Source of the DNA: Alphaproteobacteria bacterium
GTDB taxonomy: Bacteria > Pseudomonadota > Alphaproteobacteria > Rs-D84
NCBI GenBank assembly: GCA_017443235.1
Contig: JAFSOV010000016.1
Location: forward strand, 9,525-73,524
Direction of reading: 5' to 3'
DNA length: 64,000 nt
Positions within the stretch are counted from its first letter, which is position 1. Each line of letters opens with the position of its first letter. The notes under the pieces were generated by a model, which did not search any database, was not told the DNA's origin, and worked only from the letters and a program-made list of their open reading frames with translations. Both the position numbers and the translations under genes were made by a program. Positions 482-62,680 of the stretch are shown piece after piece.

Positions 482-603
482 TGAACACCGCGGTTTTCTG
501 GTGTTTTTTATAAAATGCTTGACTTTTGATGCAATTTGTGATACCATGCTGGACGTCAAAAGAGAGATTTGTGTTCACACGTTGGTGTGAATTTTTTTTA
601 TGC

Positions 604-630
604 CGCACGTCTGTGCGGTTTTTTTCTTGG
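604..630 (+). terminator. hairpin gccgcacgtctgtgcggt followed by a T-run, downstream of birA
   Basis: A GC-stem inverted repeat followed by TTTTTTT. Confidence 0.4.
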
Positions 631-646
631 CACAAAAGGAAGGAAT

Positions 647-1057
647 ATGAATTTTAGCGTGAAAGAATCGCCCAGCAAAACTATGGCGTTGGCGTATCGC
701 ATTGCACGTGTTGTTTATGCGGAAACATATGCGCGTTCTTTGATTGTTGTCGAGGCATTGACATCTATGATTGCAAATTGTGCACGGAAAAATAATCGTG
801 ATATTTGTGATGTAATAACTGATGCGAATATATTCGAATCGCTGAATCCCGATTCGATGCGTCATATGGAGATGAATATCGATTCGAATCGACGCGAATT
901 TCAAATGTGTGTGCGAATCGCGGTGCGTATGTTGCACGGGCATTTGCCGGATATGTGCCGTGGCGCGACAATGTTTCATCGCGCAGAATTATTACCCGGT
1001 TGGGCAATCGCACGCGGATATATCGCAGACATAGATGGAATTTTATTTTACGCATAA
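647..1057 (+). CDS. cell wall hydrolase (SleB/CwlJ-like Hydrolase_2 family); probable phage endolysin
   Basis: The AGGAAGGAA RBS precedes the ATG at 647. The motifs ARVVYAE...ALTSMIANCARKN...DICDVI resemble SleB-type hydrolases. It is followed by a small membrane protein, which suggests a lysis cassette. Confidence 0.55.
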   Translation: MNFSVKESPSKTMALAYRIARVVYAETYARSLIVVEALTSMIANCARKNNRDICDVITDANIFESLNPDSMRHMEMNIDSNRREFQMCVRIAVRMLHGHLPDMCRGATMFHRAELLPGWAIARGYIADIDGILFYA

Positions 1058-1069
1058 TCTTTTTAAGGT

Positions 1070-1264
1070 TTGAATATGAGCAAATTCATTAGTGGTGGTT
1101 TTTTTGCGAATCGCAAAACACAAATTATGACGGTTGTTGGTTTTATATCTGCATTGGCCGCGTATTTGGTTGGCGATTCCGATTTATTCGCGCTGATTCA
1201 GGCATTGATTGCGGTTGGCGGAGTATATATGTTGCATAAATCAAAACAAAACAAAGGAAAATAA
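1070..1264 (+). CDS. holin-like small membrane protein (two predicted TM segments)
   Basis: A 64-aa hydrophobic protein lies immediately downstream of the hydrolase, in the position of T7 gp17.5. Confidence 0.35.
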   Translation: MNMSKFISGGFFANRKTQIMTVVGFISALAAYLVGDSDLFALIQALIAVGGVYMLHKSKQNKGK

Positions 1265-1265
1265 T

Positions 1266-1922
1266 ATGGAAAATATACCAGAAAAATTTCGTAAAGACGA
1301 TGGAACATTAAATACAGATGCACTTATAAAATCTTATACGGAATTGGAAAAGAAAATTGGAACGATGATTTCTGTGCCCGATGAAAATGCAGACGAATCG
1401 GCGGTATGCCGCTTTCGCCGTGCGATTGGCGTGCCGGACAGTCCCGATGAATATCCGCAAAATGAAATGTTTGATGATGAAAATGTGCGACAAGAATTTC
1501 ATAAAATTGGTTTAACAAAAAACCAAGTTGAAAAAATTTATGACATCGCACAAAAATTTTTATCGCCTGTGGTTAATGAAATTTTATCTGTGAAACAAGA
1601 ATCAAATGCGATGTCTGAATTAAAAAAATTCTTTGGTGATGATGAAAAAATGTATGATGCGTTTGTTGCAATAAAATCGTTCGGTGAAAGATTTTTACCC
1701 GCCGATGCGTTTAATGAATTGTGCTCTACACCCCAGGGAATTCAAGGTGTGTACAAGATGATGCAATCAATGGAACCATCGGTGCAAACGGATTCGTCCG
1801 ATACGAAAATTTTATCTGATGAAGAATTGCGTCGTATGATGCGTGATCCAAAATATTGGCGTGATCATGATGCGGAATATGTTCGTAAAATTGAAAACGG
1901 TTTCAAAAAATTATATTCGTGA
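1266..1922 (+). CDS. podovirus scaffolding-like protein (gp9 position)
   Basis: AAAGGAAAA RBS. The protein is acidic and helical and begins MENIPEKFRKDDGTLNTDALIKSYTELEKK. It lies upstream of the capsid gene as in T7-like synteny. Confidence 0.4.
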   Translation: MENIPEKFRKDDGTLNTDALIKSYTELEKKIGTMISVPDENADESAVCRFRRAIGVPDSPDEYPQNEMFDDENVRQEFHKIGLTKNQVEKIYDIAQKFLSPVVNEILSVKQESNAMSELKKFFGDDEKMYDAFVAIKSFGERFLPADAFNELCSTPQGIQGVYKMMQSMEPSVQTDSSDTKILSDEELRRMMRDPKYWRDHDAEYVRKIENGFKKLYS

Positions 1923-2041
1923 TGCAATTTTTTTAATAAAAAATAACTTTTCTTCTTTACTAATTTTTTTCTTTAATATAAAATATAAAACAAGAACAAA
2001 AAGAATTTGTTCTATCCAAAAAAAATAAAAAGGAGAGAAGA

Positions 2042-2347
2042 ATGGCATTCACATTCTTGAAGACTGCGGCAAAGAAACCTGCTGCGAAAAAGCCTGCTGC
2101 CAAGAAACCGGCGGCAAAGAAACCAGCCGCGAAAAAACCGGCTGCGAAAAAACCTGCGGTTAAGAAAGTTGCTGCGAAAAAACCGGCTGCGAAAAAAGTA
2201 GCGGTTAAAAAAGTTGCTGCGAAAAAGCCGGCTGCGAAAAAAGTAGCGGTTAAAAAAGTCGCCGCAAAAAAACCGGTTGCAAAGAAAGTCGTTGCGAAAA
2301 AACCGGCTGCAAAAAAAACATGTGCAAAATGTGCCAAAAGAAAATAA
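2042..2347 (+). CDS. histone H1-like lysine/alanine-rich DNA-binding protein (tandem AAKKP repeats)
   Basis: AAAAGGAGAGAAG RBS. A 101-aa protein made of about 18 [10 protein letters not shown] pentapeptide repeats, reflected in a 15-nt DNA periodicity. Confidence 0.7.
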
Positions 2348-2369
2348 TGGTATTGCACTGAGTATATAA

Positions 2370-2397
2370 ATGCCCGCATGTCGGGCATTTTTGTTTT
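2370..2397 (+). terminator. rho-independent terminator after the H1-like gene
   Basis: atgcccgcatgtcgggcat followed by tttttgtttt. A second hairpin, tcagtcagattttttgtctgactga, follows at 2410-2440. Confidence 0.6.
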
Positions 2398-2573
2398 GTG
2401 AAAAATTTCAGTCAGATTTTTTGTCTGACTGAATTTTTTCCTTGGACAATCCACATTGTGGACCCGTTTGAATTTATTTTCGGCGCCGTACGCGGCATAA
2501 CCACAAATAAATTTTTGGTTGGGCGATAATGATTCGCCTGGATTTCAATTTTGATTAAACAAAAGGAATAATA

Positions 2574-3392
2574 ATGTCTGTTTCCATAGATCAAGTATTT
2601 GTGAAACAATTTGAAGCGGATGTTCACCTTGCGTACCAACAGATGGGGACAAAACTGCGTTCAACGATTCGCAGCAAATCGGGCGTTGTCGGTGCATCCA
2701 CAACTTTTCAAAAAATTGGTAAAGGCACGGCCAGTACCAAATCACGTCACGGCATCGTTCCGGTAATGAACCTTAATCACACTCCGGTGGAATGCACATT
2801 GCAAGATTACTATGCCGGCGATTGGGTTGATGCATTGGATGAATTGAAAATCAATATCGATGAACGTCGTGTGGTTGCATCGGCCGGTGCATATGCGTTG
2901 GGTCGCAAAACCGATGAATTGATTGTGAATGCAATGAACAGTGCAACCGGATATGTTGGTGATTATTCAACCGGTCTTACCAAAACATTGATTTTAACCG
3001 CATTGGAAAAACTGAATGAAAATGATGTCCCAGATGATGGCCGCAGATTCGCAGTCGTTGGTGTAAAACAATGGAATGAATTGTTGGGTATCACAGAATT
3101 TTCTTCGGCGGATTATGTCGGTGAAAATATGCCGTTTATCAATGGATGTGAAACAAGAAAGTGGCTTGGTATCACATGGGTTATGTACAACGATTTGCCG
3201 GTTCCGGCCGCTACACATCGTGATTGCTTTATCTATCATGCGTCCAGTGTTGGTCATGCGTGCGGTCAAGAAGTCAAAACGGATATTACATGGCACGGTG
3301 AACGTGCCGCACATTTCATCAGCAACAGTATGTCCCAAGGGGCGGTGCTGATTGATAATGACGGTATTGTTCGTGTCAAGTGCGGTGAATAA
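2574..3392 (+). CDS. T7 gp10-like major capsid protein (short form, 272 aa)
   Basis: The FVKQFEADVHLAYQQ...RSKSG...TFQKIGKGTAS pattern parallels T7 gp10 LKVFGGEVLTAF...RSISSGKSAQFPVLGRTQAA. Its position between the scaffold and tubular protein A matches T7 synteny. Confidence 0.6.
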   Translation: MSVSIDQVFVKQFEADVHLAYQQMGTKLRSTIRSKSGVVGASTTFQKIGKGTASTKSRHGIVPVMNLNHTPVECTLQDYYAGDWVDALDELKINIDERRVVASAGAYALGRKTDELIVNAMNSATGYVGDYSTGLTKTLILTALEKLNENDVPDDGRRFAVVGVKQWNELLGITEFSSADYVGENMPFINGCETRKWLGITWVMYNDLPVPAATHRDCFIYHASSVGHACGQEVKTDITWHGERAAHFISNSMSQGAVLIDNDGIVRVKCGE

Positions 3393-3416
3393 AACAAATA
3401 ATCCAAGGGGTAAAAA

Positions 3417-3647
3417 ATGGCTTTTCAAAATAAAAATTTATCTGTGATTGCGTATGCCAATGGGTTCACACTGTGGCATTATGCCGCCAATGAAACATTG
3501 GCAACGATTACGGCAAGTGGCTACTTTAACGCGGTTAAAACGTTGATGAACACCGGCGATATGGTTTTAATCAATGCATCCGATAAAACGTCAATCAAAA
3601 AAATTGCGGTTGGCGACAGCGCGGTGACCACTGCGGCATTGGATTAA
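3417..3647 (+). CDS. small phage protein between capsid and tail tubular A
   Basis: GGGGTAAAAAATGG RBS. A 76-aa ORF in the operon context. Confidence 0.3.
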   Translation: MAFQNKNLSVIAYANGFTLWHYAANETLATITASGYFNAVKTLMNTGDMVLINASDKTSIKKIAVGDSAVTTAALD

Positions 3648-3713
3648 TACCTTGTTTGTTTGTATGTTGATAAAGGGGTCGATTTCGGCCCCTTGTATTT
3701 TTCTTGGGGGGAA

Positions 3714-4235
3714 ATGATGCTAACAAAAATAGATTTATGTTCAATGGCGTTGTTAAAATTGGGTGAAAACCCGATTCAATCTTTGTCGGACGATACAACG
3801 GCCGCAAAATTGGGACGTACATTGATTGATTTTGTAATAGATACTTTATTGGCGATGCACCCGTGGCGTTTCGCGTGTCATACATACACGGTTGTCAAAG
3901 ACGAAAATGGTGATTTGAATATACCGGCGGATGTTTTGCGTATTCTTAAAACAAATGCGCGTGTTGTTGATAATAAGATTATATCGGATTCGTCTGCGGT
4001 GGATGTTACGGCAATTCGGCGTGTTTCGCCCGATAGTTTTCCAAGTTATTTTTCATCGTTGGTGGCAACAAAACTGGCCGTGGAATTTTGTATTCCGTTG
4101 ACATCAGATCAAACCGTATTTCGGACATTGGTTGCATTATATGAAACAGAATTACAAACGGCGAAATTCATAGACAGTACAACTTCGATAAATCCTGCGA
4201 TAGAAAACTTTTCGTTGTTGGACAGTCGCTTTTAA
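3714..4235 (+). CDS. tail tubular protein A (T7 gp11-like)
   Basis: The N-terminus LCSMALLKLGENPIQSLSDD..AAKLGRTLIDFVIDTLLAMHPWRF parallels T7 gp11 [55 protein letters not shown] RBS. Confidence 0.6.
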   Translation: MMLTKIDLCSMALLKLGENPIQSLSDDTTAAKLGRTLIDFVIDTLLAMHPWRFACHTYTVVKDENGDLNIPADVLRILKTNARVVDNKIISDSSAVDVTAIRRVSPDSFPSYFSSLVATKLAVEFCIPLTSDQTVFRTLVALYETELQTAKFIDSTTSINPAIENFSLLDSRF

Positions 4236-4252
4236 TACCAAGGGGTGTAAAT

Positions 4253-5959
4253 ATGGGAAACTTTATCAAAACGCAAACGTCGTTTGCCAACGGCGAAGTA
4301 TCACCAAATTTTTTTGCGAATTCCAATATCAACGGACTTTCGCGATTGGAAAATATGGACGTGATACCCGGGGGCGGCCTGCGTCGTCGGCCCGGATTAA
4401 AAAAGATTGCCAAATTGTCGGCAAATGCGCGATTGGTTCCGTTTTCAATTTCTGAAACGGAACATTATGTGTTGGCGATAATGAATGGCCTGGTTCGCAT
4501 TTTTTCGGGTGATTCGTTTGTCCAAGATGTATTTGCGCCGTGGTCGGGTGCGGATGTGGGACTGGTCCAATACGCACAACGTTTTGGAACGATGATTTTC
4601 GTTCATCCAGATTACAGTCCCAGAATTTTGTACCGTGATAACGGTATTTTTAAGTTTATGAATTTTTCGTTCTCGTCATCCGATGGTGGCGAAAATGTCG
4701 ATATGCCTTTTATGCGTTTTGAAGATTCGAATAACATAAGTATCACAATCACTATGGTGGGCAGTACGGCGCACCTGAATACGAATCAAGATTTTTGGAC
4801 GGCACAAAATGTTGACGGCCATTTATCCCTTTTGGGAAAAACTTGGTTGATAACATCATATATTGGACCGCGCGAGGTCACCGCGGCGTGTAATGGTATT
4901 TTTACAATACCAAATTCACCAATCATCGATTGGCAAGAAGCCGTATTCAGCCCACGTCGTGGATGGCCAACCAGTATAACTTTTCACCAGAATCGGTTAG
5001 TGTTTGGTGGTTCAAAATCTTGGCCGGGTGGTGTGTGGATGTCGCATGTTGGCGAACATAAAAATTTTAATACCGGCACAGGTTTGGATGACGAAGCGAT
5101 ATGTTTCACACTGTTGTCATCACGACGTCAACATATTTGCACATTGGTCAGCAGTGACAATTTGCAAATCCTTACATCCGAAGGTGAATGGGCGGTTTCA
5201 AATAAACCATTGACCCCGGAATCAGTGAACATAAAAATGCATACCACAATCGGGTGCATCGCGGACAGATATTTGCCGCCCCAAGAAATTGACGGTTCAA
5301 CAATATTTGTGTCGAACAATAAACACGATATACGACAAATGGTTTTGGACGATTTGGGTCAAAATTACCGGGCCGATAATTTGTGTGCATTGGCGGAACA
5401 TATAATGAACAATCCAATTGATATTGCATACAATAAAACAGATAAAAAACTGTTTGTTGTTATGTCAAATGGCGAAATGGCCGTGTTAAATCGAAATACT
5501 GAATTGGGAATTTCCGGATGGGGACACTATATAACCGCGGGTGAATTCAAATCTGTTGCGGTGTCCAATGGCAATACATACGTCGTGACGGAACGCGATT
5601 CGGAATTTATGTTTGAAAGATTCGATGATTCAAAAATGATTGATGCAGACGAATATCCATACACTTCACGTGCCTGTGGATTGCCGATAATGACGTCTGG
5701 ACATAACGCGAAATATACAAGGATTAAAAAGATTGTCGCACGTGTACACAATTCGAAAACTTTATTTATAAACAATTTTCGAACCGCATTTCCAAATGAA
5801 GTTTATGTTGATGGCGCATCCGGATTTTCGGGCGATATGTCAGTAAATGTTTTGGGAACACTGCGTGATATGGTGGACAGTCCATGGGAAATATCAACCA
5901 GTGATGAATTACCATTGACCGTATTATCGATAACAATATATGGCCGATATCAAATATAA
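4253..5959 (+). CDS. tail tubular protein B (T7 gp12-like)
   Basis: The N-terminal FANGEVSPNFF..GLSRLENMDVIPGGGLRRRPGL resembles gp12 GGISQQPDILRYPDQGSRQVNGWSSETEGLQKRPPL. It follows gp11 as in T7. Confidence 0.6.
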   Translation: MGNFIKTQTSFANGEVSPNFFANSNINGLSRLENMDVIPGGGLRRRPGLKKIAKLSANARLVPFSISETEHYVLAIMNGLVRIFSGDSFVQDVFAPWSGADVGLVQYAQRFGTMIFVHPDYSPRILYRDNGIFKFMNFSFSSSDGGENVDMPFMRFEDSNNISITITMVGSTAHLNTNQDFWTAQNVDGHLSLLGKTWLITSYIGPREVTAACNGIFTIPNSPIIDWQEAVFSPRRGWPTSITFHQNRLVFGGSKSWPGGVWMSHVGEHKNFNTGTGLDDEAICFTLLSSRRQHICTLVSSDNLQILTSEGEWAVSNKPLTPESVNIKMHTTIGCIADRYLPPQEIDGSTIFVSNNKHDIRQMVLDDLGQNYRADNLCALAEHIMNNPIDIAYNKTDKKLFVVMSNGEMAVLNRNTELGISGWGHYITAGEFKSVAVSNGNTYVVTERDSEFMFERFDDSKMIDADEYPYTSRACGLPIMTSGHNAKYTRIKKIVARVHNSKTLFINNFRTAFPNEVYVDGASGFSGDMSVNVLGTLRDMVDSPWEISTSDELPLTVLSITIYGRYQI

Positions 5960-5978
5960 AAAAACAAAAGGATAAAAA

Positions 5979-6326
5979 ATGGGACAAGTTATTTCAGATG
6001 TGAAAGATATTTTGAATTACCAAGAGGGCAAGAAAAAAACTGCATCGACCCGCAAAAAAATTTTAAGACAAATGGCCACGGACGAAAATACCAAACAAAA
6101 CCTTGTAAAAAAAGTCTTGGCAACCCAACGCGCAAAATATGGGGCGTCGGGGATGAAAACCCGTGGCCAAACCGAAGATGCGGTTTTGACACGGTTAAAA
6201 CAAGAAACAGAACAACCATATAATGAAAAAAAGCAATCCAATTTGAACAAATTAAAAAATACGCGTGCCAAGAAAAAGAATCTGTTATTGTCGGCATTGG
6301 AACATATGGAAAAATTGGTCGGGTAA
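5979..6326 (+). CDS. small basic protein (possible internal virion protein, gp13 position)
   Basis: A 115-aa lysine-rich protein following tubular B. Confidence 0.3.
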   Translation: MGQVISDVKDILNYQEGKKKTASTRKKILRQMATDENTKQNLVKKVLATQRAKYGASGMKTRGQTEDAVLTRLKQETEQPYNEKKQSNLNKLKNTRAKKKNLLLSALEHMEKLVG

Positions 6327-6327
6327 G

Positions 6328-6921
6328 ATGACGGAATATAACCAATTTTTGGATTCTTGGAATTCAGTATTGGGATTGGTCACGCCCGCGCATCACCATC
6401 GTATGACAAATTTTTTGACCGATGTGTTAGAAGGTGAAAATCATCGTGGTTTGTTGATGGCATTCCGGCATTCGGGAAAATCCACGATAGTCGGGATTTT
6501 TGCAACGTGCGTCCTGTTTCTGCGCCCCCAAACGCGTATTCTTATTTTGTCGGCCCAGACACACCAGGCCGCCCGAATGGTTATGCATATAAGAAACATT
6601 TTGGAAAATCATCCATGGTGCCAAGATATGATTCCAAAAAATCGTCGTGAATGGGCAGAAAATAAAATAACCATAAATCGCCCAATTGGCATTCGCGAAC
6701 CATCGGTACTGTGCCAAGGAATATACGGAAATATAACCGGTATGCGTGCAGATTTGATAATTTGTGATGATGTCGAGGTTCCAAATACATGCAACACCGC
6801 ACGAAAACGTGCGGCGTTGCGTGAAAGATTGCGTGAATTGGATTTCGTGCTGTCCCCAAATGGTACAATGATTTATATCGGGACACCGCACACATTGGAT
6901 ACCATATATCGTACGGTTTAG
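6328..6921 (+). CDS. terminase large subunit, N-terminal ATPase fragment (split gene)
   Basis: Walker A FRHSGKST and Walker B ADLIICDDVE. The fragment ends LDTIYRTV* after motif III, and no nuclease domain follows in this ORF. Confidence 0.7.
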   Translation: MTEYNQFLDSWNSVLGLVTPAHHHRMTNFLTDVLEGENHRGLLMAFRHSGKSTIVGIFATCVLFLRPQTRILILSAQTHQAARMVMHIRNILENHPWCQDMIPKNRREWAENKITINRPIGIREPSVLCQGIYGNITGMRADLIICDDVEVPNTCNTARKRAALRERLRELDFVLSPNGTMIYIGTPHTLDTIYRTV

Positions 6922-7583
6922 TCCGCAGAATCGGTATGTGGTAAAGAACTGGTAATCTTGTGCAATCGGCGCAGTAATTTTTGTCCTTCGTCACCGAACA
7001 TCGGCAGGTATGTTTCATAATCCAACATATCAACCTGAAGCTGTGCACGTGCGCGTTCGTTTATCGGTTTTGCCAAGATTTCGTTTGCATTGTCCCAAAG
7101 TTTATATGCCCTCTGGGTGCGGATAATCATATCAAATTTCTTCAATGCTTCGGGATTGTTATTCAATATGTTCTTGATGGAATTTGCCCAATCAGGACCA
7201 AATTTTTTAACAACCGGGTTTTGCATAAATTCATTCAATTTATCTTGGTCCGGTTCAAAATCATCAATTGCATTTATAAGTTCTGCCATATCCGCAAACG
7301 GCACATCGGTCGCATTTGCGCCTTCGTTCATCATACCACCATAGGGCAATAATTCGCGTGCAATTGAATTCATGGGCGTTTTGCCATCACGCAAATTTTT
7401 TATGTGTTGCGCCAACATTTTGCCGGTGGGTAAATCGGCCATTTCATTCAATACTTCATCGGTGGCCTCGTCAACAAAGACACGATTCACCGCGCCCCAC
7501 CCGCCGACAATAACGTGCGCCTGGCGATACAGATTCAGTAATTTTTGTGCGATTACGCTTGCTTTGGCTTTCATCTCGTTCAA
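6918..7583 (-). CDS. hypothetical protein (221 aa) inside the terminase-interrupting insert
   Basis: A clean ORF ending 4 bp inside the terminase-N stop. I recognise no family for it. Confidence 0.45.
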   Translation of the reverse strand: MNEMKAKASVIAQKLLNLYRQAHVIVGGWGAVNRVFVDEATDEVLNEMADLPTGKMLAQHIKNLRDGKTPMNSIARELLPYGGMMNEGANATDVPFADMAELINAIDDFEPDQDKLNEFMQNPVVKKFGPDWANSIKNILNNNPEALKKFDMIIRTQRAYKLWDNANEILAKPINERARAQLQVDMLDYETYLPMFGDEGQKLLRRLHKITSSLPHTDSAD

Positions 7584-7601
7584 TCCCTCCGTTGGATGGT
7601 G

Positions 7602-8612
7602 TTATTCTGTGGTGACCATAATAACCTTGTGCATAGTTTGCGCAGAAATTTTTTCTTCGGGCGACACTATTTGGCCATAAATTTTGCCTTTGGAATCTTG
7701 ACGTACTATGGCGATTTGTGCGACCAACGTTTTATCATCACTCAGCGTTTTGAAATCGGTATCAACAAACACCGCCAAATCACCAACCGCGGGCACCGAT
7801 TTAACATCTGCAAAAACATAGGAACGTGCCGGAATAAACCCGCCCAGACGTTTAGAATTTGGAATAAGGGCATATACGCCGCGGCGGCCTTCAAGATTTG
7901 CCGGCGCCGCAATCATTGTTGAATCAGATTTTTTGAATGCAATTCCTTTGCCTTCGGGTTTGCCGAAGACCGGAACCAATTTTTTGCGCGCATTATCATA
8001 CAATTTGGCACCATACAAATGTCCCTGCATATCGCCCAAATCGGCAGCGGAATCCCCAGGAACCAGAACGGCCCGTACGCGTTCTTTGACCTTGTTCATT
8101 TGTTTGGTCAGTTCGCCAGATTTATATAAATCTGCGATTTTATCGAACATACTGTCCACAGAATGCGCAAATGAGCGCGCCAATGGTTCAATTTCATTTT
8201 TATATACTTCGCGTTGGCCGACCTCTATCTTGTGATACACAGACAGTGTCATTCCCGCATCTTTGGCGGCCTGGGCAATGGTTTTGCCGGCCTGTTGACG
8301 TATTTTGCGCAGACCACTGCCGAATACTTTCAATCCGCTGTCTTCATTATCGTTCATACGGCGTTTGATTTCATTTTGCCATTTTGCGGCGACTTCGTCT
8401 GTGTCCTTGATGAATATATCGGACAATTTGCACCCCAATATATTGCATATATTTAACAATTGTTTTTGGTTCAGGCGGCGCACACCTTTTTCAATCTTGG
8501 AAACCGCCGACAACGACAATCCCGACCGGCGTGCCAGTTCTGTCATCTTCATACCCGCGGCCAGACGAATGTTGCGAATGTTATTTGGAAAAATGATTTC
8601 TTCTTGGGCCAT
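7602..8612 (-). CDS. XRE-family repressor with two N-terminal HTH domains and a C-terminal LexA/CI (S24)-like beta domain
   Basis: Two HTH_XRE-like segments: IRNIRLAAGMKMTELARRSGLSLSAVSKIEKG and LRKIRQQAGKTIAQAAKDAGMTLSVYHKIEVG. The C-terminal VGDLAVFV...KTLVAQIAIV resembles the LexA C-domain, but I do not see a GDSM catalytic Ser motif. Confidence 0.6.
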   Translation of the reverse strand: MAQEEIIFPNNIRNIRLAAGMKMTELARRSGLSLSAVSKIEKGVRRLNQKQLLNICNILGCKLSDIFIKDTDEVAAKWQNEIKRRMNDNEDSGLKVFGSGLRKIRQQAGKTIAQAAKDAGMTLSVYHKIEVGQREVYKNEIEPLARSFAHSVDSMFDKIADLYKSGELTKQMNKVKERVRAVLVPGDSAADLGDMQGHLYGAKLYDNARKKLVPVFGKPEGKGIAFKKSDSTMIAAPANLEGRRGVYALIPNSKRLGGFIPARSYVFADVKSVPAVGDLAVFVDTDFKTLSDDKTLVAQIAIVRQDSKGKIYGQIVSPEEKISAQTMHKVIMVTTE

Positions 8613-8683
8613 ATAAAACTCCTTGGGATAAATCTTGACAAAATCATAGTCAATTTTAGAAAACTTGGCAAGGAAAAAGTTTA

Positions 8684-8725
8684 ATGGTGGTTAGTGTTAG
8701 TGATTAGTGTAAGTGGTTAGTAACA
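8684..8725. repeat. TTAGTGG heptad repeat block (inverted partial copy of the 62521-62625 element)
   Basis: ggtggttagtgttagtgattagtgtaagtggttagtaacactaa. Its reverse complement contains actaaccacttacactaa, which is identical to 62608-62625. Confidence 0.6.
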
Positions 8726-10267
8726 CTAATTCATATCGTCGGGTATTTCGTTCAGGTCGATAGGCATTGCATCATTGGTTTGCGGTACGGGTGCGCCTTC
8801 TTCGGCAAATTGGATGCCACCACGGTTCGCCATATCGTTCAGGTTATCAAACAAACTGAATTCCGGCAAGAACGCCAATTTAATGGTATCTGTTTTTCCG
8901 TGGCGGTTTTTGCCGATAATGACATCGGCTTTGCCTTTGGATTTTTCCATACGATTTTGCCACGAATCAACAGACCTTTCATTCGGGGCACCCGAAAGAC
9001 GGTGCGACGGGTCGCGATTCGCCAAATAATATTCTTCACGATACGTGAACATAACAATGTCCGCGTCTTGTTCAATAGAACCGGATTCACGCAAATCCGA
9101 CAATTGCGGGCGTTTATCATCACGCATTTCAACACTGCGCGATAACTGCGACAGGGCGATAACCGGAACCTCAAATTCCTTGGCCAACATTTTAAGGGCG
9201 CGCGTTATTTCGGACAGTTCTTGGACACGATTATCTTTGTTTTTCCCGCCCGGCGAAGTCAATAATTGCAGGTAATCAATCACAATCAGCGCAATTCCGT
9301 TATATTTGCGCGCCAATCTCCGCACGCGCGTGCGAATCATTGGCACCGACATCCCCGGTGTATCGTCAATGAACAATGGAATACGACTTATCGCATCGGA
9401 AAATTGCGTCATTTTAAGAAAGTCTTCATCGGTCAATGAACCTTCGCGCATCGCACTGGACGGGATGCGTGATTGCGAAGACAAAACACGTGCCGCCAAT
9501 TCGGATGCACCCATTTCCAGGCTGAAAAACGCGACCGCGCCGGTATACTGCGGGTTGGCGCGGCCCGAAAATATCGCGTTTGCCGCATTGAATGCAATAT
9601 TCATGGCCAATGTCGTTTTACCCATACCCGGACGCCCCGCGATAATCAACAGGTTTGATTTGTGCATACCACTTATTGCGGAATCTAAATCGGTCAATCC
9701 CGTTGTCAATCCGGACAATTTGCCGTCCGCCTTGTATGCGATTTCGGCCTCAACCAGTGCGCTTTTTAACGCGTTGGCAATCGGTGTGACATCACGCCCG
9801 GAATCACCACTTGTCGCCATATTGAACAGCATTTGTTCCGCATTTTCGATTTGGGTCGTCACCGGTTTGTCCAAATCTTCGACAAATGCGTCATCGGTTA
9901 TATTTTGTCCAATTTGAATCAGTTCGCGGCGCATCGCATTTTCATGCACGATTCGTCCATATTGTTCAACGTTCACAACCGTTGCGCCCGCGCCCGCCAA
10001 TTGTGTCAAATAATCGATTCCGCCCACAGATTCCAATGTTCCCTGTTGGTCCAGATAGTTTTTAACGGTAATTATGTCGAACGGTATTCCGGCCGCAAAT
10101 TGGCGCATCGCCAAACGATATATTTCTTGGTGGGCGGGATGGGAAAAATCTTCGGCTTTCAAAAATTCGGAAATTTTTTCCAGTGCGCGGTTGTTGATAA
10201 GCACCGCCGCCAAGACGGCCTGTTCGGCCTCCATATTCGTTGGTAAAGTTTTGGGAGTAAAGTCCAT
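8726..10267 (-). CDS. dnaB: DnaB-family replicative DNA helicase
   Basis: A full DnaB N-domain plus the RecA-like domain with Walker A GRPGMGKTT and the SLEMGASELAARVL and IDYLQLL motifs. At 513-515 aa there is no room for an intein. Confidence 0.85.
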   Translation of the reverse strand: MDFTPKTLPTNMEAEQAVLAAVLINNRALEKISEFLKAEDFSHPAHQEIYRLAMRQFAAGIPFDIITVKNYLDQQGTLESVGGIDYLTQLAGAGATVVNVEQYGRIVHENAMRRELIQIGQNITDDAFVEDLDKPVTTQIENAEQMLFNMATSGDSGRDVTPIANALKSALVEAEIAYKADGKLSGLTTGLTDLDSAISGMHKSNLLIIAGRPGMGKTTLAMNIAFNAANAIFSGRANPQYTGAVAFFSLEMGASELAARVLSSQSRIPSSAMREGSLTDEDFLKMTQFSDAISRIPLFIDDTPGMSVPMIRTRVRRLARKYNGIALIVIDYLQLLTSPGGKNKDNRVQELSEITRALKMLAKEFEVPVIALSQLSRSVEMRDDKRPQLSDLRESGSIEQDADIVMFTYREEYYLANRDPSHRLSGAPNERSVDSWQNRMEKSKGKADVIIGKNRHGKTDTIKLAFLPEFSLFDNLNDMANRGGIQFAEEGAPVPQTNDAMPIDLNEIPDDMN

Positions 10268-11111
10268 GTCCAATATACTATATGAAAAAAATGTTTTTTC
10301 AACGCCTTTTTTATGCGGGTATGCCGAATTAAAAATTCCAATACTGGATTCAAGCGGAAATTCGGCATGGCCGGCGGTTTTTCCGCCTGAAAAAATTGCC
10401 CAAATCAGGGATACGGTCGGTGAAAGGCATTTTTCGGCGCAAATGATGCTGGATTATGTGTCGCCTGAAAAAATCCGCCTGGATCCCGGGACAATACATT
10501 TTTATGAAGACGAATTTGACCCACACACCGCCCGCATCGGGGACGATTTAATGTCGGGTGCGGCAATTTATTGGGACCCATCGGGTGGCCGCCGCGGCGC
10601 CGATAACAGTGTTTGTGCATTGATTTATCGTGACGATAAAAATCGCCGCGTCTTTATACACGATATTATCTATGTTGTTGTGCCAGATGAAATAGATTAT
10701 CCATTGGCATATCAATGTGACCGGATTATCGAATTTGTGCGTCACAGCAATATGCACCAAATTGCATTGGAAACAAATGGTCTTGGGGCGGCATTACCCG
10801 AAATTATGCGTGACATCATAAAGCGTAATGGTGGCGGAATAAATCTGCGCCCAATAACAAATTCGCGGCGCAAAGAAGACCGTATATTGGACGCATTGGA
10901 ACCATTAATGTCAACGGGTCGATTGTTCGCCCATCGGCGAATCACCCAAACCCCATTTATTACAGAAATGTTGGCATGGTCGCCATTAGGCGGATGCGAA
11001 CACGATGACGGTTTGGATGCGGTTGCCGGTGCAATTACGTGTCCGCCGGTACCTGTGCGCCCAACCTTTGGTGGTGCGCGGTATATGGCAAACACAGATT
11101 TCAAAATTTAA
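10266..11111 (+). CDS. terminase large subunit, C-terminal nuclease fragment (split gene)
   Basis: It starts exactly at the dnaB start on the other strand. The AIYWDPSGGRRGADNSVCAL...HDIIYVV...ETNGLG...DDGLDA pattern is the RNaseH-like nuclease domain of large terminases. Confidence 0.65.
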   Translation: MSNILYEKNVFSTPFLCGYAELKIPILDSSGNSAWPAVFPPEKIAQIRDTVGERHFSAQMMLDYVSPEKIRLDPGTIHFYEDEFDPHTARIGDDLMSGAAIYWDPSGGRRGADNSVCALIYRDDKNRRVFIHDIIYVVVPDEIDYPLAYQCDRIIEFVRHSNMHQIALETNGLGAALPEIMRDIIKRNGGGINLRPITNSRRKEDRILDALEPLMSTGRLFAHRRITQTPFITEMLAWSPLGGCEHDDGLDAVAGAITCPPVPVRPTFGGARYMANTDFKI

Positions 11112-11132
11112 TACATAACAAAAGGAAAAAAT

Positions 11133-12359
11133 ATGAAATATGATTTACAACAAATGTACAATCGCGCGATAAATATGCGTGAACCTTGGTTGCGTCGTTG
11201 GGCGGATGCGCGCCGTTATACCATGCCATCAACCGATGAAGATTTGGCGACACTGTTTGATGCGACCGCATCGGACGCGGCCGACAATTTGGCGGCGTGT
11301 ATGTATTCGCTGTTGACGCCCCCAGAATCTTTGTGGTTAAACCTTGTTCGTGAAAGCGATGATTCGCCCGACCCAGAAATCGCAACCGCGGCATTGCGTG
11401 CGAATTTGAATGATTCGAATTTTTACACAACGATTCATCAATGCTATATGGATTTAGTGACATTGGGGACGGCGTGCCTGTTTATGGCGGAATCGCCCAT
11501 TGGCACGGCCAGTGCGTTTTCATTTACGGCAATTCCAATTTCTGATATTGCAATTTTACCGGATGCGATATTTCATACAACAACGCTTTCGGCGGCGGAA
11601 ATTTCGCGCCGTTATCCTGAATGGACACCGCCACGCGATATAATGAAAAAAATGCAGCAAGATGCGGAATACAGACTTCGCCTGGTCCAATCTTTGGTGG
11701 GTACTGAATTTACCGCGTGGATTGACGTTGGCGGCGACTTTGAAAACAACATAGTGTCGCGTGGGACATTCGAAACGAATCCTTATTTGATTTTCCGTTG
11801 GTCGGTGGCCAGTGGTGAATTATACGGTCGTGGCCCGATTTTGCGCGCTTTGCCGGACATCAAAACCGCAAACAAAGTTGTCGAATTGGTTTTGAAAAAT
11901 GCAACAATCGCGGTCAGTGGCATATGGCAGGCCGATGATGACGGCGTCATAAACCTTGGCAATATCAATTTAACACCGGGTGCGATAATACCAAAAGCCG
12001 TGGGCAGTTCGGGCCTGACGCCACTTGCGTCGGGTGCAAATTTTGATGTGTCGCAAATTATTTTGAAAGATTTGCGCGAACGTATCCGGCACACTTTATT
12101 GGCGGACAGAATCGGTTTGTTATCTGAAAAAGAAATGACCGCAACAGAAATCTTGGCGCGCAATGCGGATATGCTGCGCATTTTGGGTGCGACATATGGG
12201 CGTCTGTTGCATGAATTTATACGGCCACTGTGCGACCGCGGATTGCAAATATTGGCACGGCGGGGCGTGATTGACAAGATATCATTGCACGGTGATGCAG
12301 AATTGAAATACATCGCGCCCATCGCGCAAATGGTTGCAGAAAATAATACAATAATTTAG
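11133..12359 (+). CDS. head-tail connector (portal) protein, T7 gp8-like
   Basis: ELYGRGPILRALPDIK and TATEILARNADMLRILGATYGRLLHEFIRPLCDRGLQILARRG parallel the T7 gp8 central and C-terminal regions. Confidence 0.6.
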   Translation: MKYDLQQMYNRAINMREPWLRRWADARRYTMPSTDEDLATLFDATASDAADNLAACMYSLLTPPESLWLNLVRESDDSPDPEIATAALRANLNDSNFYTTIHQCYMDLVTLGTACLFMAESPIGTASAFSFTAIPISDIAILPDAIFHTTTLSAAEISRRYPEWTPPRDIMKKMQQDAEYRLRLVQSLVGTEFTAWIDVGGDFENNIVSRGTFETNPYLIFRWSVASGELYGRGPILRALPDIKTANKVVELVLKNATIAVSGIWQADDDGVINLGNINLTPGAIIPKAVGSSGLTPLASGANFDVSQIILKDLRERIRHTLLADRIGLLSEKEMTATEILARNADMLRILGATYGRLLHEFIRPLCDRGLQILARRGVIDKISLHGDAELKYIAPIAQMVAENNTII

Positions 12360-12370
12360 TGGTGATAAAT

Positions 12371-12577
12371 ATGGAACGTATAGAAATCGCATATGCGCGC
12401 ACGTTCGGCGGCGCATCGGGTGCGGTCGTTTTGGAACATCTGCGCAAGATTACGATTGAACGGTCGTTGGGACCAAATGCGTCTGAATCAGAACTGCGCA
12501 GTATCGAAGCCCAACGTGCATTGGTTCATAAAATAGAACAATTGGTATTACGGGGGCGTGAAAATGCAAAAACATAA
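12371..12577 (+). CDS. small phage-associated protein
   Basis: A 68-aa ORF overlapping the next ORF. It belongs to the module by context. Confidence 0.3.
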   Translation: MERIEIAYARTFGGASGAVVLEHLRKITIERSLGPNASESELRSIEAQRALVHKIEQLVLRGRENAKT

Positions 12578-12821
12578 TGGACTGGCAAATATAATTGATA
12601 CACTGCGCAGTGGATGGTTTTTAATTGCGTTTATTGGTGGTATGATTTATTGGGTCGCGCGCCAAGATAATGCATTGGTGGAACTGGACCGATTGACGGT
12701 TCGTATGACAACACTGGAAAATCGCACAACGGTGTTGGAAACCGGAATAGGCCAATTACAATTAAAAATAGACGGCATCAAAGAAGACGTCACTTTGATA
12801 AAAACTGCGGTTATAAAGTAA
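12558..12821 (+). CDS. small membrane/coiled-coil protein (phage module end)
   Basis: An 87-aa protein with an N-terminal TM helix and a coiled coil. It is followed by a strong terminator. Confidence 0.3.
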   Translation: MKMQKHNGLANIIDTLRSGWFLIAFIGGMIYWVARQDNALVELDRLTVRMTTLENRTTVLETGIGQLQLKIDGIKEDVTLIKTAVIK

Positions 12822-12827
12822 AAGAAA

Positions 12828-12866
12828 ATCCCGCGCATTTATGTGTGCGGGATAATTTTTGTTTTT
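12828..12866. terminator. bidirectional rho-independent terminator
   Basis: atcccgcgcatttatgtgtgcgggat followed by aatttttgttttt. Confidence 0.65.
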
Positions 12867-59280: not shown

Positions 59281-59370
59281 ACCCGTCGCGGCCGCGGCAT
59301 ATCTCGCTGTGGCGCAAGCGTAAGCGGATGCCGGGACGGACCGACCACTAACACTAACCACTATTTATTT
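59281..59370. repeat. dispersed element copy: CCCGTCGCGGCCGCGGCA...GCCGGGACGG hairpin plus a CCACTAACACTAACCACTATTT heptad tail
   Basis: It shares its 5' 19 nt, GCCGGGACGGAC and the CACTAACCACTATTT tail with 62627-62680. Confidence 0.6.
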
Positions 59371-62520: not shown

Positions 62521-62680
62521 GAAAATAGTGATTAGTGGATAGTGTTAGTGGCTAGTGATTTCTGGAATAAGTTCATAATTACAAACTAATTCTAAAACCA
62601 ACTAACCACTAACCACTTACACTAAAACCCGTCGCGGCCGCGGCACCAATGGTGCCGGGACGGACTAACCACTATTTCTG
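62521..62680. repeat. dispersed element, full copy: TTAGTGG heptad palindrome plus CCCGTCGCGGCCGCGGCACCAATGGTGCCGGGACGG hairpin plus a CTAACCACTATTT tail
   Basis: The left arm GTGATTAGTGGATAGTGTTAGTGGCTAGTGATT and the right arm AACCAACTAACCACTAACCACTTACACTAA are inverted heptad arrays. A GC hairpin follows. The element abuts the ackA stop. Confidence 0.65.

Follow-up and report, generated by a model that had tools for sequence, protein, structure and literature searches.

We analysed a stretch of 64,000 nucleotides of Alphaproteobacteria bacterium (hereafter the window; GTDB order Rs-D84, GenBank assembly GCA_017443235.1, contig JAFSOV010000016.1, positions 9,525 to 73,524 of the forward strand), which is a bacterial chromosome segment with a G+C content of ~44% and three tRNA genes. 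In this window the large terminase gene (terL) of a T7-like particle gene cluster is carried as two open reading frames (ORFs) on the plus strand, TerN (6328..6921; the N-terminal 197 aa) and TerC (10266..11111; 281 aa). They are separated by a 3.35-kb insert whose three genes, encoding an all-helical protein (Unk), a regulator of the XRE family and a DnaB helicase, all lie on the minus strand. The best reading of this arrangement is an old, fixed and selected rearrangement and not a broken prophage. From sequence comparison, we consider it probable that the two ORFs encode a two-chain terminase and that the surrounding genes form a domesticated T7-like particle cluster of Candidatus Enterousia. 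Three accounts had been offered by the original prediction for this locus: a mobile cassette that inactivated the terminase, a two-polypeptide terminase, and the capture of a replication/lysogeny module. The evidence favours the second, with the association and the activity of the two chains still predicted.

The two ORFs were identified as complementary parts of one terminase through profile searches. TerN matched columns 273-460 of the TerL profile phrog_38, as well as PF03237, and TerC matched columns 480-701 of the same profile together with the Pfam family Terminase-T7_RNaseH-like (PF22530; 34.9 bits against a cutoff of 27). These profile columns and the flush junctions described below confirmed that the halves lie on the same strand and in order, with TerN ending at 6921 and TerC resuming at 10266. 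Two unrelated terminase genes, each fragment aligning to the full length of a different terminase, were rejected because the fragments are non-overlapping parts of the profile and are colinear with intact TerLs. When the two translations were concatenated, the product aligned in one piece, over 95-99% of its length, to the T7-like TerL of 949 phage records, with identities of only 26-27% to the TerLs of cultured T7-like phages. The join (GTPHTLDTIYRTV followed by MSNILYEKNVFSTPFL) was colinear with 12 intact homologues and no conserved part was missing from the alignment, so that the junction is seamless when set against T7-family TerLs. TerN carries Walker A (GKST, residues 50-53), Walker B with the catalytic Glu (CDDVE, 146-150) and motif III (GTP, 185-187). 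The pair thus has the Walker A/B motifs, motif III and the acidic residues of the RNase H-like nuclease in common with the T7-family TerLs (gp19; PhiV-1 TerL, PDB 8DGC; T7 model 4BIJ), and it likewise lies among genes for a T7-type scaffold, tube A, tube B and a portal. It differs from the T7 family in being two ORFs 3.35 kb apart instead of a single polypeptide, and in lying on a bacterial chromosome where the remainder of a T7 genome is missing.

The split had been predicted to fall at the boundary between the ATPase and nuclease domains. Pfam and an AlphaFold2 (AF2) model of the concatenate instead place the cut within the ATPase domain, shortly past motif III and, as modelled, ~80-100 residues before the nuclease fold. 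The break site corresponds to a variable-length loop between the conserved segments GTPHxxxTIY and FLxG(F/Y)xxLxIP; TerN stops 3 residues past the conserved TIY, and TerC brings only ~13 extra residues, which align to the variable loop of intact TerLs. Because these first ~13 codons of TerC are new sequence over the dnaB promoter (see below), the DNA that is foreign to terL extends to ~10305. The alignment profile retrieved the T7-like terminase of PhiV-1 (8dgc_E, E-value 2.8e-39) and also the T7 gp19 model, and 8dgc_E was likewise the best Foldseek match of the AF2 model (E-value 4.6e-27). In that model (mean predicted local distance difference test score, pLDDT, 84.5) confidence drops internally only at residues 200-207, where the halves join, and past these come a beta strand (217-221), helices (238-257) and the nuclease fold from ~275-290; the Pfam nuclease domain begins at about residue 100 of TerC. 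TerC is therefore modelled as the last ATPase strand with helices, a linker and the T7-type RNase H-like nuclease. In the fold search, isolated ATPase-domain structures aligned over ~285 columns, well beyond residue 197, and TerN alone would be an incomplete fold because the last ATPase strand is on TerC. Each half has its own signals: TerN has a stop codon at 6919-6921 and TerC its own start at 10266. The TerC ATG, the commonest first codon (91% of sequences), follows a Shine-Dalgarno-like (SD-like) G-rich stretch in most species. A TerC homologue of 402 aa on a 16.9-kb metagenome contig (P0015) contains an internal tandem duplication of ~120 residues, which is either an artefact of assembly or real.

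To place the arrangement among relatives, we scanned one genome per GTDB species, which gave 244 relatives, extracted a locus of +/-10 kb from each genome and mapped the genes by tblastn; loci with enough upstream sequence were considered evaluable (n=75; Candidatus Enterousia and relatives). All of the best 80 of the 244 relatives carry the split form, and these are metagenome-assembled genomes (MAGs) named Candidatus Enterousia or uncultured gut/rumen Alphaproteobacteria. TerN, Unk, the regulator, DnaB and TerC were all present in 75/75 evaluable loci, with order and orientation the same in 74, and scaffold, capsid, tube A, tube B and p115 (a small gene just upstream of TerN) were also retained in 63/67 loci. 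A search for an uninterrupted terminase returned distant ones among the top-scoring homologues. Among 5.8 billion proteins, the concatenate retrieved stand-alone TerC proteins (mostly 279-283 aa, 57-99% identical, in more than 70 protein clusters) and intact terminases of 468-524 aa that cover 95-100% of it at 40-44% identity. No fused TerL of >44% identity was found among the best 120 of 1739 homologues. A chimeric assembly at 6921 or 10266 was rejected by the recurrence of the arrangement in all 75 species genomes and by an identical repressor protein on 23 metagenome contigs from independent assemblies, the six examined sharing their neighbour genes in the same order throughout their extent.

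Selection on the cluster was estimated as omega (the ratio of nonsynonymous to synonymous divergence) by the Nei-Gojobori method (NG86), using pairs with a synonymous divergence (dS) of 0.05-1.5 among a subset of closer species. The values were 0.057 for TerN and 0.105 for TerC, next to 0.067 for the capsid protein and 0.063 for the portal; among the insert genes 0.062 for DnaB, 0.079 for the regulator and 0.197 for Unk; and 0.060 for the host reference BamA. By these sequence-based estimates, purifying selection on both halves is as strong as on bamA or dnaB. No internal stop was found in 73 TerN and 81 TerC sequences. GKST, CDD(V/I)E and GTPH did not vary among the 73 TerN sequences, and the nuclease acidic residues D104, E169, D247, D248 and D251 of TerC were invariant. 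The capsid protein is 80-98% identical over 73 species. TerC diverges faster than TerN (median identity 58% vs. 73%), and its length, mostly 279-283 aa, is held down to 53% identity.

These data bear most directly on a decaying prophage, in which a cassette hit terL and the halves are pseudogene remnants. The gene is indeed physically interrupted, by the stop codon at 6919-6921, and some structural genes have been lost from 4/67 loci. Against such decay, TerN is open in 73 species and TerC in 81, their omega values resemble those of essential core genes, the catalytic motifs are invariant and TerC keeps its length. The host is also a poor setting for remnants: Enterousia (GTDB order Rs-D84) has genomes of 0.75-1.0 Mb with ~90% coding density (PMC12306168), and because these genomes are so strongly reduced, the keeping of ~12 kb of unused phage DNA is unlikely. 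We regard a decaying prophage as very improbable.

The antisense insert was confirmed at 6918-10273, with its 218- or 221-aa ORF, a protein with two helix-turn-helix (HTH) domains and a full-length DnaB. Both of its ends are flush with terL. At the 3' end of TerN the stop codons of TerN and Unk overlap in TTAG (6918-6921), and at the 5' end of TerC the start codons of TerC and dnaB overlap in CATG (10265-10268). Unk occupies 6918..7574 on the minus strand (218 aa; the longer, 221-aa ORF extends to 7583) and is the second gene of the regulator operon, the regulator (336 aa) occupies 7602..8612, and dnaB occupies 8726..10267 (513 aa from the ATG at 10267; the longer ORF extends to 10273).

DnaB has full N- and C-terminal domains (PF00772 and PF03796) and passes the models of cellular equivalogs (NF006606, 600.7 against a cutoff of 540; TIGR00665, 511.3 against 385), whereas its score against the phage_DnaB model (407) is below the cutoff of 499. 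By these profile scores the helicase in the insert is of the cellular replicative type, and across species it is conserved about as well as BamA. Given genomes of 0.75-1.0 Mb and this core-gene-like rate, the dnaB between the terL halves is probably the only dnaB of the genome. The C-terminus of DnaB (8726-8830) has a tail of ~30 residues past the family profile, which ends in nearly all species in the acidic motif IPDDM(P)L before the stop codon; we take this tail to be reminiscent of the C-terminal tip of the single-stranded DNA-binding protein (SSB), and a docking role for the motif is possible.

Codons of the terminase double as the dnaB promoter. Synonymous diversity at TerC codons 2-15 is 0.17 of expectation, whereas the remaining windows of eight genes give 0.6-1.0. 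The block ATAGTATATGAAAAAAATGYTTTTTCAACGCCTTTTTTAT at the start of TerC is almost invariant in 80 loci and reads, on the dnaB strand, as TTGAAA-16-TACTAT. In the window the candidate promoter is TTGAAA-16-TAGTAT (10275..10302, minus strand), at about codons 4-13 (more broadly 4-17) of TerC, and the motif ends 7-8 nt upstream of the dnaB ATG. The start codons of dnaB and TerC overlap in 49/75 loci; the remaining 26 have a spacer of 16-25 nt with an AAGGA Shine-Dalgarno sequence for dnaB. Because the start codons overlap in most species, the dnaB mRNA of these species is suggested to be leaderless or nearly so.

Neither the contents nor the ends of the insert point to mobile DNA. The idea that a mobile cassette (or transposon) inactivated the terminase was abandoned: the insert is present in 75/75 genomes, its three genes match no transposase or recombinase family, the low omega values, intact ORFs and invariant motifs speak against inactivation, and a search for terminal repeats, target-site duplications and inverted repeats at the junctions found none beyond shuffled controls (best junction alignment 8, against a shuffle mean of 7.65). 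Programmed DNA excision, as of the skin or nifD element, would remove the 3.35-kb segment in producing cells, rebuild terL and cost those cells their dnaB. Excision would fit the colinear order and shared orientation of the halves, and a loss of dnaB would suit a terminal, lytic cell fate. We nevertheless judge excision highly improbable, since no recombinase is present and the junction repeats do not exceed those of shuffled controls, TerN has its own stop codon and TerC mostly its own ATG with an SD-like stretch, the N-terminus of TerC is constrained as a promoter and not as a recombination site, and no fused ORF was seen among the top-scoring homologues from 5.8 billion proteins.

Splicing of RNA or protein could also rejoin the halves, through a group I/II intron or a split intein as in cyanobacterial DnaE, and group I introns bearing an endonuclease are known in terL of Staphylococcus phages (PMC11934314). 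Here, an Rfam scan of the window at gathering thresholds returned three tRNAs only, and the insert genes are antisense with conserved promoters of their own, so that we consider splicing exceedingly improbable. Given the sizes of inteins, the 3 and ~13 extra residues at the break leave no room for intein halves. Phage genes split by a free-standing endonuclease gene, such as T4 gp39/gp60 and the NrdA gene of Aeromonas phage Aeh1, yield pieces that work as separate polypeptides. As in those cases, an essential enzyme here is in two pieces around inserted genes; however, the inserts of those phage genes are selfish elements on the same strand, whereas this insert is antisense, holds a cellular essential gene and no endonuclease or intron, and has been kept by at least 75 species of bacteria.

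The third account of the original prediction, capture of a replication/lysogeny module, stands in so far as the insert combines a helicase with a regulator, but the helicase is cellular-type and the arrangement is a lineage-wide, old and vertical feature. A related alternative is an active temperate phage or satellite, of which the insert would be the own replication and lysogeny module and dnaB a phage gene. A repressor-like HTH gene and a helicase do adjoin structural genes, IMG/VR holds such regions as viral contigs of 10-12 kb, and the flanks differ in some species (e.g., ackA-lemA in locus L007). On the other side, profile searches covering the cluster and its immediate flanks turned up no integrase, polymerase or primase family, and DnaB passes the cellular models, fails the phage model and evolves at the rate of bamA. 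In addition, the cluster is frequently flanked by lipB on one side and by yraN, a 273-aa gene (p273) and bamA on the other, and this neighbourhood recurs in species with only 54-60% TerC identity; the shared flanks and gene order of such distant species indicate vertical inheritance from an old event. An active phage or satellite is thus improbable.

The regulator was also described as CI-like, and this held in part. It has two HTH_3 domains, as expected at the N-terminus of a CI/LexA-type autocleavable repressor, followed by a C-terminal domain of ~150 aa without a family; no Pfam match, S24 peptidase included, was found for its C-terminal 158 aa even at E ≤ 10, so that an S24 peptidase domain was not detectable. 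Orthology with the S24 repressor of the outgroup clusters described below was tried and is unsupported by BLAST, which was not significant, and by Pfam. The regulator gene has a predicted promoter, TTGCCA-17-TATGAT, with the palindrome TTGAC-N9-GTCAA over its -10 element (8635..8671, minus strand). The promoter motif was present in all 45 sequences displayed and the palindrome in 77/77 loci examined. The palindrome is a presumed operator, and from this pattern the HTH gene looks autoregulated. The palindrome occurs as a single copy in the window, and none was found at the other cluster promoters there. Unk is all-helical, and its family is small, with 79 representatives in a set of 1.84 billion proteins; sequence and fold searches gave no relatives of known function and no informative fold neighbours. 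A 13-bp G+C-rich hairpin just downstream of the Unk stop codon (6791-6820, minus strand), inside TerN, could end the regulator operon. It was rejected as a conserved terminator, being confined to the closest relatives of the window.

The particle genes surround the insert on the plus strand (647-12821) in the order hydrolase, 62-aa protein, scaffold, Lys/Ala/Pro-repeat protein, capsid, 76-aa protein, tube A, tube B, p115, TerN, insert, TerC, portal, Bbp19-like protein and 85-aa protein. The first is a cell-wall hydrolase (Hydrolase_2, 647..1057), followed by a T7-type scaffold (capsid assembly) protein (1266..1922; PF05396, E-value 2.9e-13, with a gene call in locus L001), the major capsid protein (Phage_capsid_2, 2574..3392; PF19821, E-value 5e-73), tail tubular protein A (adaptor, 3717..4235; PF17212 and phrog_394) and tail tubular protein B (nozzle, 4253..5959; phrog_376, E-value 4.5e-81). 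Past TerC lie the portal or head-to-tail connector (11133..12359; PF12236, E-value 2.9e-78), the Bbp19-like protein (12359-12577) as the penultimate gene and a conserved 85-aa protein (p87, 12564-12821; omega 0.061) as the last. A terminator-like hairpin of 11 pairs followed by a T-run (12828..12853, plus strand) closes the cluster.

The leader of this operon has a conserved layout. Of the loci that extend far enough upstream of the hydrolase gene, 35/35 carry there the motif CTTGACTTT..TRTGATAYNAT. In the window, it corresponds to a candidate late promoter identified through motif conservation (TTGACT-17-TACCAT with an extended TG; 519..547, plus strand). Next in the 5' leader (573..626, plus strand) come two hairpins in tandem that resemble intrinsic terminators, with a T-run behind each; RNAalifold on 35 species gave 12 pairs, of which 10 showed compensatory changes. 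The T-run was invariant, and the stems vary by species. The outgroup locus L097 has the same design of promoter and terminators ahead of its portal operon (promoter 3327-3350). A promoter followed directly by two intrinsic terminators, as in antitermination-type late operons, suggests lambda-like antitermination control. As in the late control of lambda by PR'-tR' and Q, intrinsic terminators lie within ~30-80 nt of a consensus-like promoter and precede a long late operon; here, in contrast, the terminators are two in tandem, no Q-like protein was recognised and the control is a prediction.

On this layout, antitermination at the two terminators would switch on the particle genes from the late promoter. 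On its way to TerC, the portal and the last two genes, the late transcript would then pass through the regulator operon and dnaB in antisense. It probably crosses the insert because no comparably conserved promoter for TerC and the portal was found there: synonymous scans of DnaB, the HTH gene and Unk for a conserved plus-strand element never fell below 0.69. TerN and TerC would associate, each complementing the other in one split ATPase fold, and form the packaging motor, and the read-through would couple particle production to the shut-off of replication and of the regulator. We hold this antisense coupling only tentatively and think it rather unlikely as stated. The locus resembles the excludon, the overlapping divergent operons of Listeria, in that divergent genes have promoters in each other's transcribed region and one transcript is predicted to be antisense to the other gene. 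It differs in that the start codons overlap in 49/75 loci and that one promoter is inside the coding sequence of the partner.

Several observations weigh against a two-chain terminase in a working particle cluster. The association of TerN and TerC into an active heterodimer was read from the model of an artificially fused chain. No antiterminator protein or RNA was recognised in the cluster, and Unk has no informative relatives. At the operator, a plus-strand TTGACA is invariant while its -10 element is not, and a less conserved promoter for TerC and the portal may exist inside the insert. No tail-fibre gene is recognisable in the lineage of the window. Four of the 67 loci (L036, L052, L079 and L088) are without some structural genes (tube and/or capsid), so the cluster is dispensable at least sometimes; these loci still keep TerN, the insert, TerC and the portal, and the dnaB-containing core may outlive the particle genes. 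One of them, L079 (CAVGNU010000006.1), is an Enterousia-type cluster without tube B and p115 in a 'Bacteroides fragilis' bin, where it is probably misbinned.

The missing fibre also enters into exaptation beyond packaging, by which the cluster would serve as a protein shell, a defence decoy or a lysis/secretion device and TerN and TerC would work separately. A split ATPase fold would be unusual in a working motor, and TerC evolves faster than TerN. However, every gene needed for a T7-like head, portal, adaptor and nozzle is conserved along with the two halves, all catalytic residues of the ATPase and the nuclease are kept, and TerN alone would lack the last ATPase strand; we consider exaptation unlikely. 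In other lineages fibre-like genes do occur. A gene like the N-terminal part of the T7 fibre stands between p115 and TerN in 36/80 other loci, for example a 183-aa gene (5501-6052 in L007) that resembles the tail-attachment part of T7-like fibres and is found in many Enterousia lineages, and some of these lineages (e.g., L007, 12555-13118) also have an Mtd_N-like tail protein past the last cluster gene; the lineage of the window is without both.

The closest comparison for the domesticated particle cluster is a set of alphaproteobacterial clusters with an intact TerL (Magnetospirillum sp. LM-5, CACVCE010000023; loci L093-L097). In these clusters of ~10 kb an S24 repressor on the minus strand is followed by two small genes, portal, Bbp19, scaffold, capsid, tube A, tube B, one or two genes, TerL, hydrolase and often a GTA_holin_3TM protein, with varying host flanks. 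They share with the Enterousia cluster a TerL of 40-44% identity, the lack of an integrase, the genes for portal, Bbp19, scaffold, Phage_capsid_2, tube A, tube B and Hydrolase_2, and the promoter with tandem terminators. They differ in that TerL is one ORF of 470-502 aa, the portal comes first, the regulator is S24/LexA-like, no dnaB lies inside and a GTA_holin_3TM protein is often present. Because the Enterousia order differs from theirs by more than an insertion, several rearrangements must have occurred. Such T7-like intact-TerL clusters are widespread and stand in different host contexts (L093, L094, L095, L096, L097 and L011), both split and intact forms are present in IMG/VR as short viral contigs, and no paper describing the intact family was found in the literature searched; it may be an undescribed family in its own right, either satellites or like gene transfer agents (GTAs).

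Described GTAs (RcGTA-type; FpGTA of Faecalibacterium) are likewise chromosomal, phage-derived and vertically inherited clusters under purifying selection without replication or integration genes. RcGTA-type clusters are HK97/siphovirus-like. A split terminase with an embedded host gene was found in no described GTA in the literature searched. As for the features expected of a GTA, the structural and packaging genes of the Enterousia cluster are chromosomally fixed, vertically inherited and selected, a module for self-replication or integration is lacking, and of an adsorption apparatus tube A, tube B and the portal are present, with a fibre-like gene in 36/80 loci and none in the window. That the cluster mediates GTA-like DNA transfer is a serious possibility, although we would place it somewhat on the doubtful side. 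As a whole, the arrangement is a variant on what is already known, namely phage-derived clusters that have been domesticated and phage enzymes encoded in pieces. Our literature search, of incomplete coverage, returned no split terminase with dnaB, no alphaproteobacterial T7-like GTAs and no phage-like genes of Enterousia or Rs-D84.

Among the remaining genes, p115 (5979..6326, plus strand; 115 aa, Lys-rich) had no family match in profile searches, and a small-terminase role is read from its position only, directly upstream of terL, as are genes of 95-112 aa in the outgroups. Between the scaffold and capsid genes, the 101-aa Lys/Ala/Pro-repeat ORF (2042-2347, plus strand) consists of KKPAA-type pentapeptide repeats encoded by tandem 15-nt repeats (2064-2317), with a histone H1-like composition; it matched no family and may serve as an internal protein that binds DNA or as a decoration protein.

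A heptad repeat between dnaB and the regulator had been noted as shared with elements elsewhere in the window, and this was borne out. The TTAGTG-type heptads of the array just past the dnaB stop codon (8684..8722, unstranded) recur at 59344-59364 and 62525-62675, with 14 matches against 2.6 expected and 0/100 shuffles reaching 14. The array between dnaB and the regulator is present in some species only, sometimes as inverted arrays around a hairpin; because of this it lies outside the conserved architecture, and it was rejected as part of the mechanism. As an element, TTAGTGG/CCACTAA arrays at 59281-59364, 62525-62675 and 8684-8722 lie to either side of a G+C-rich hairpin (CCCGTCGCGGCCGCGGCA...CCGGGACGG), in some cases as inverted pairs, and adjoin lemA and ackA here. 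By its looks it belongs to the rumen clade and is either a repetitive extragenic palindromic (REP)-like or miniature inverted-repeat transposable element (MITE)-like element or a terminator that works in both directions.

Textbooks treat the large terminase as a motor made of a single chain. If the two-chain terminase is true, its naturally split ATPase fold would show where the motor tolerates a break and would offer a ready-made split system for mechanistic work, and the cluster may be a new podovirus-type GTA-like system in Alphaproteobacteria. The fullest form of this picture is speculative, and we put it forward with little confidence: a T7-like GTA-type system across Rs-D84, in which a two-chain ATPase packages DNA and the late transcript, running antisense through the only dnaB and the regulator, turns off chromosome replication and commits producing cells to a terminal state. 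The cluster probably matters to these uncultured gut and rumen bacteria, since it persists in genomes of <1 Mb, which normally shed DNA that they do not use. An essential replication gene nested in a particle operon, with its promoter written in terminase codons, is an unusual case of dual coding, and the nesting of dnaB suggests a link between replication and particle production.

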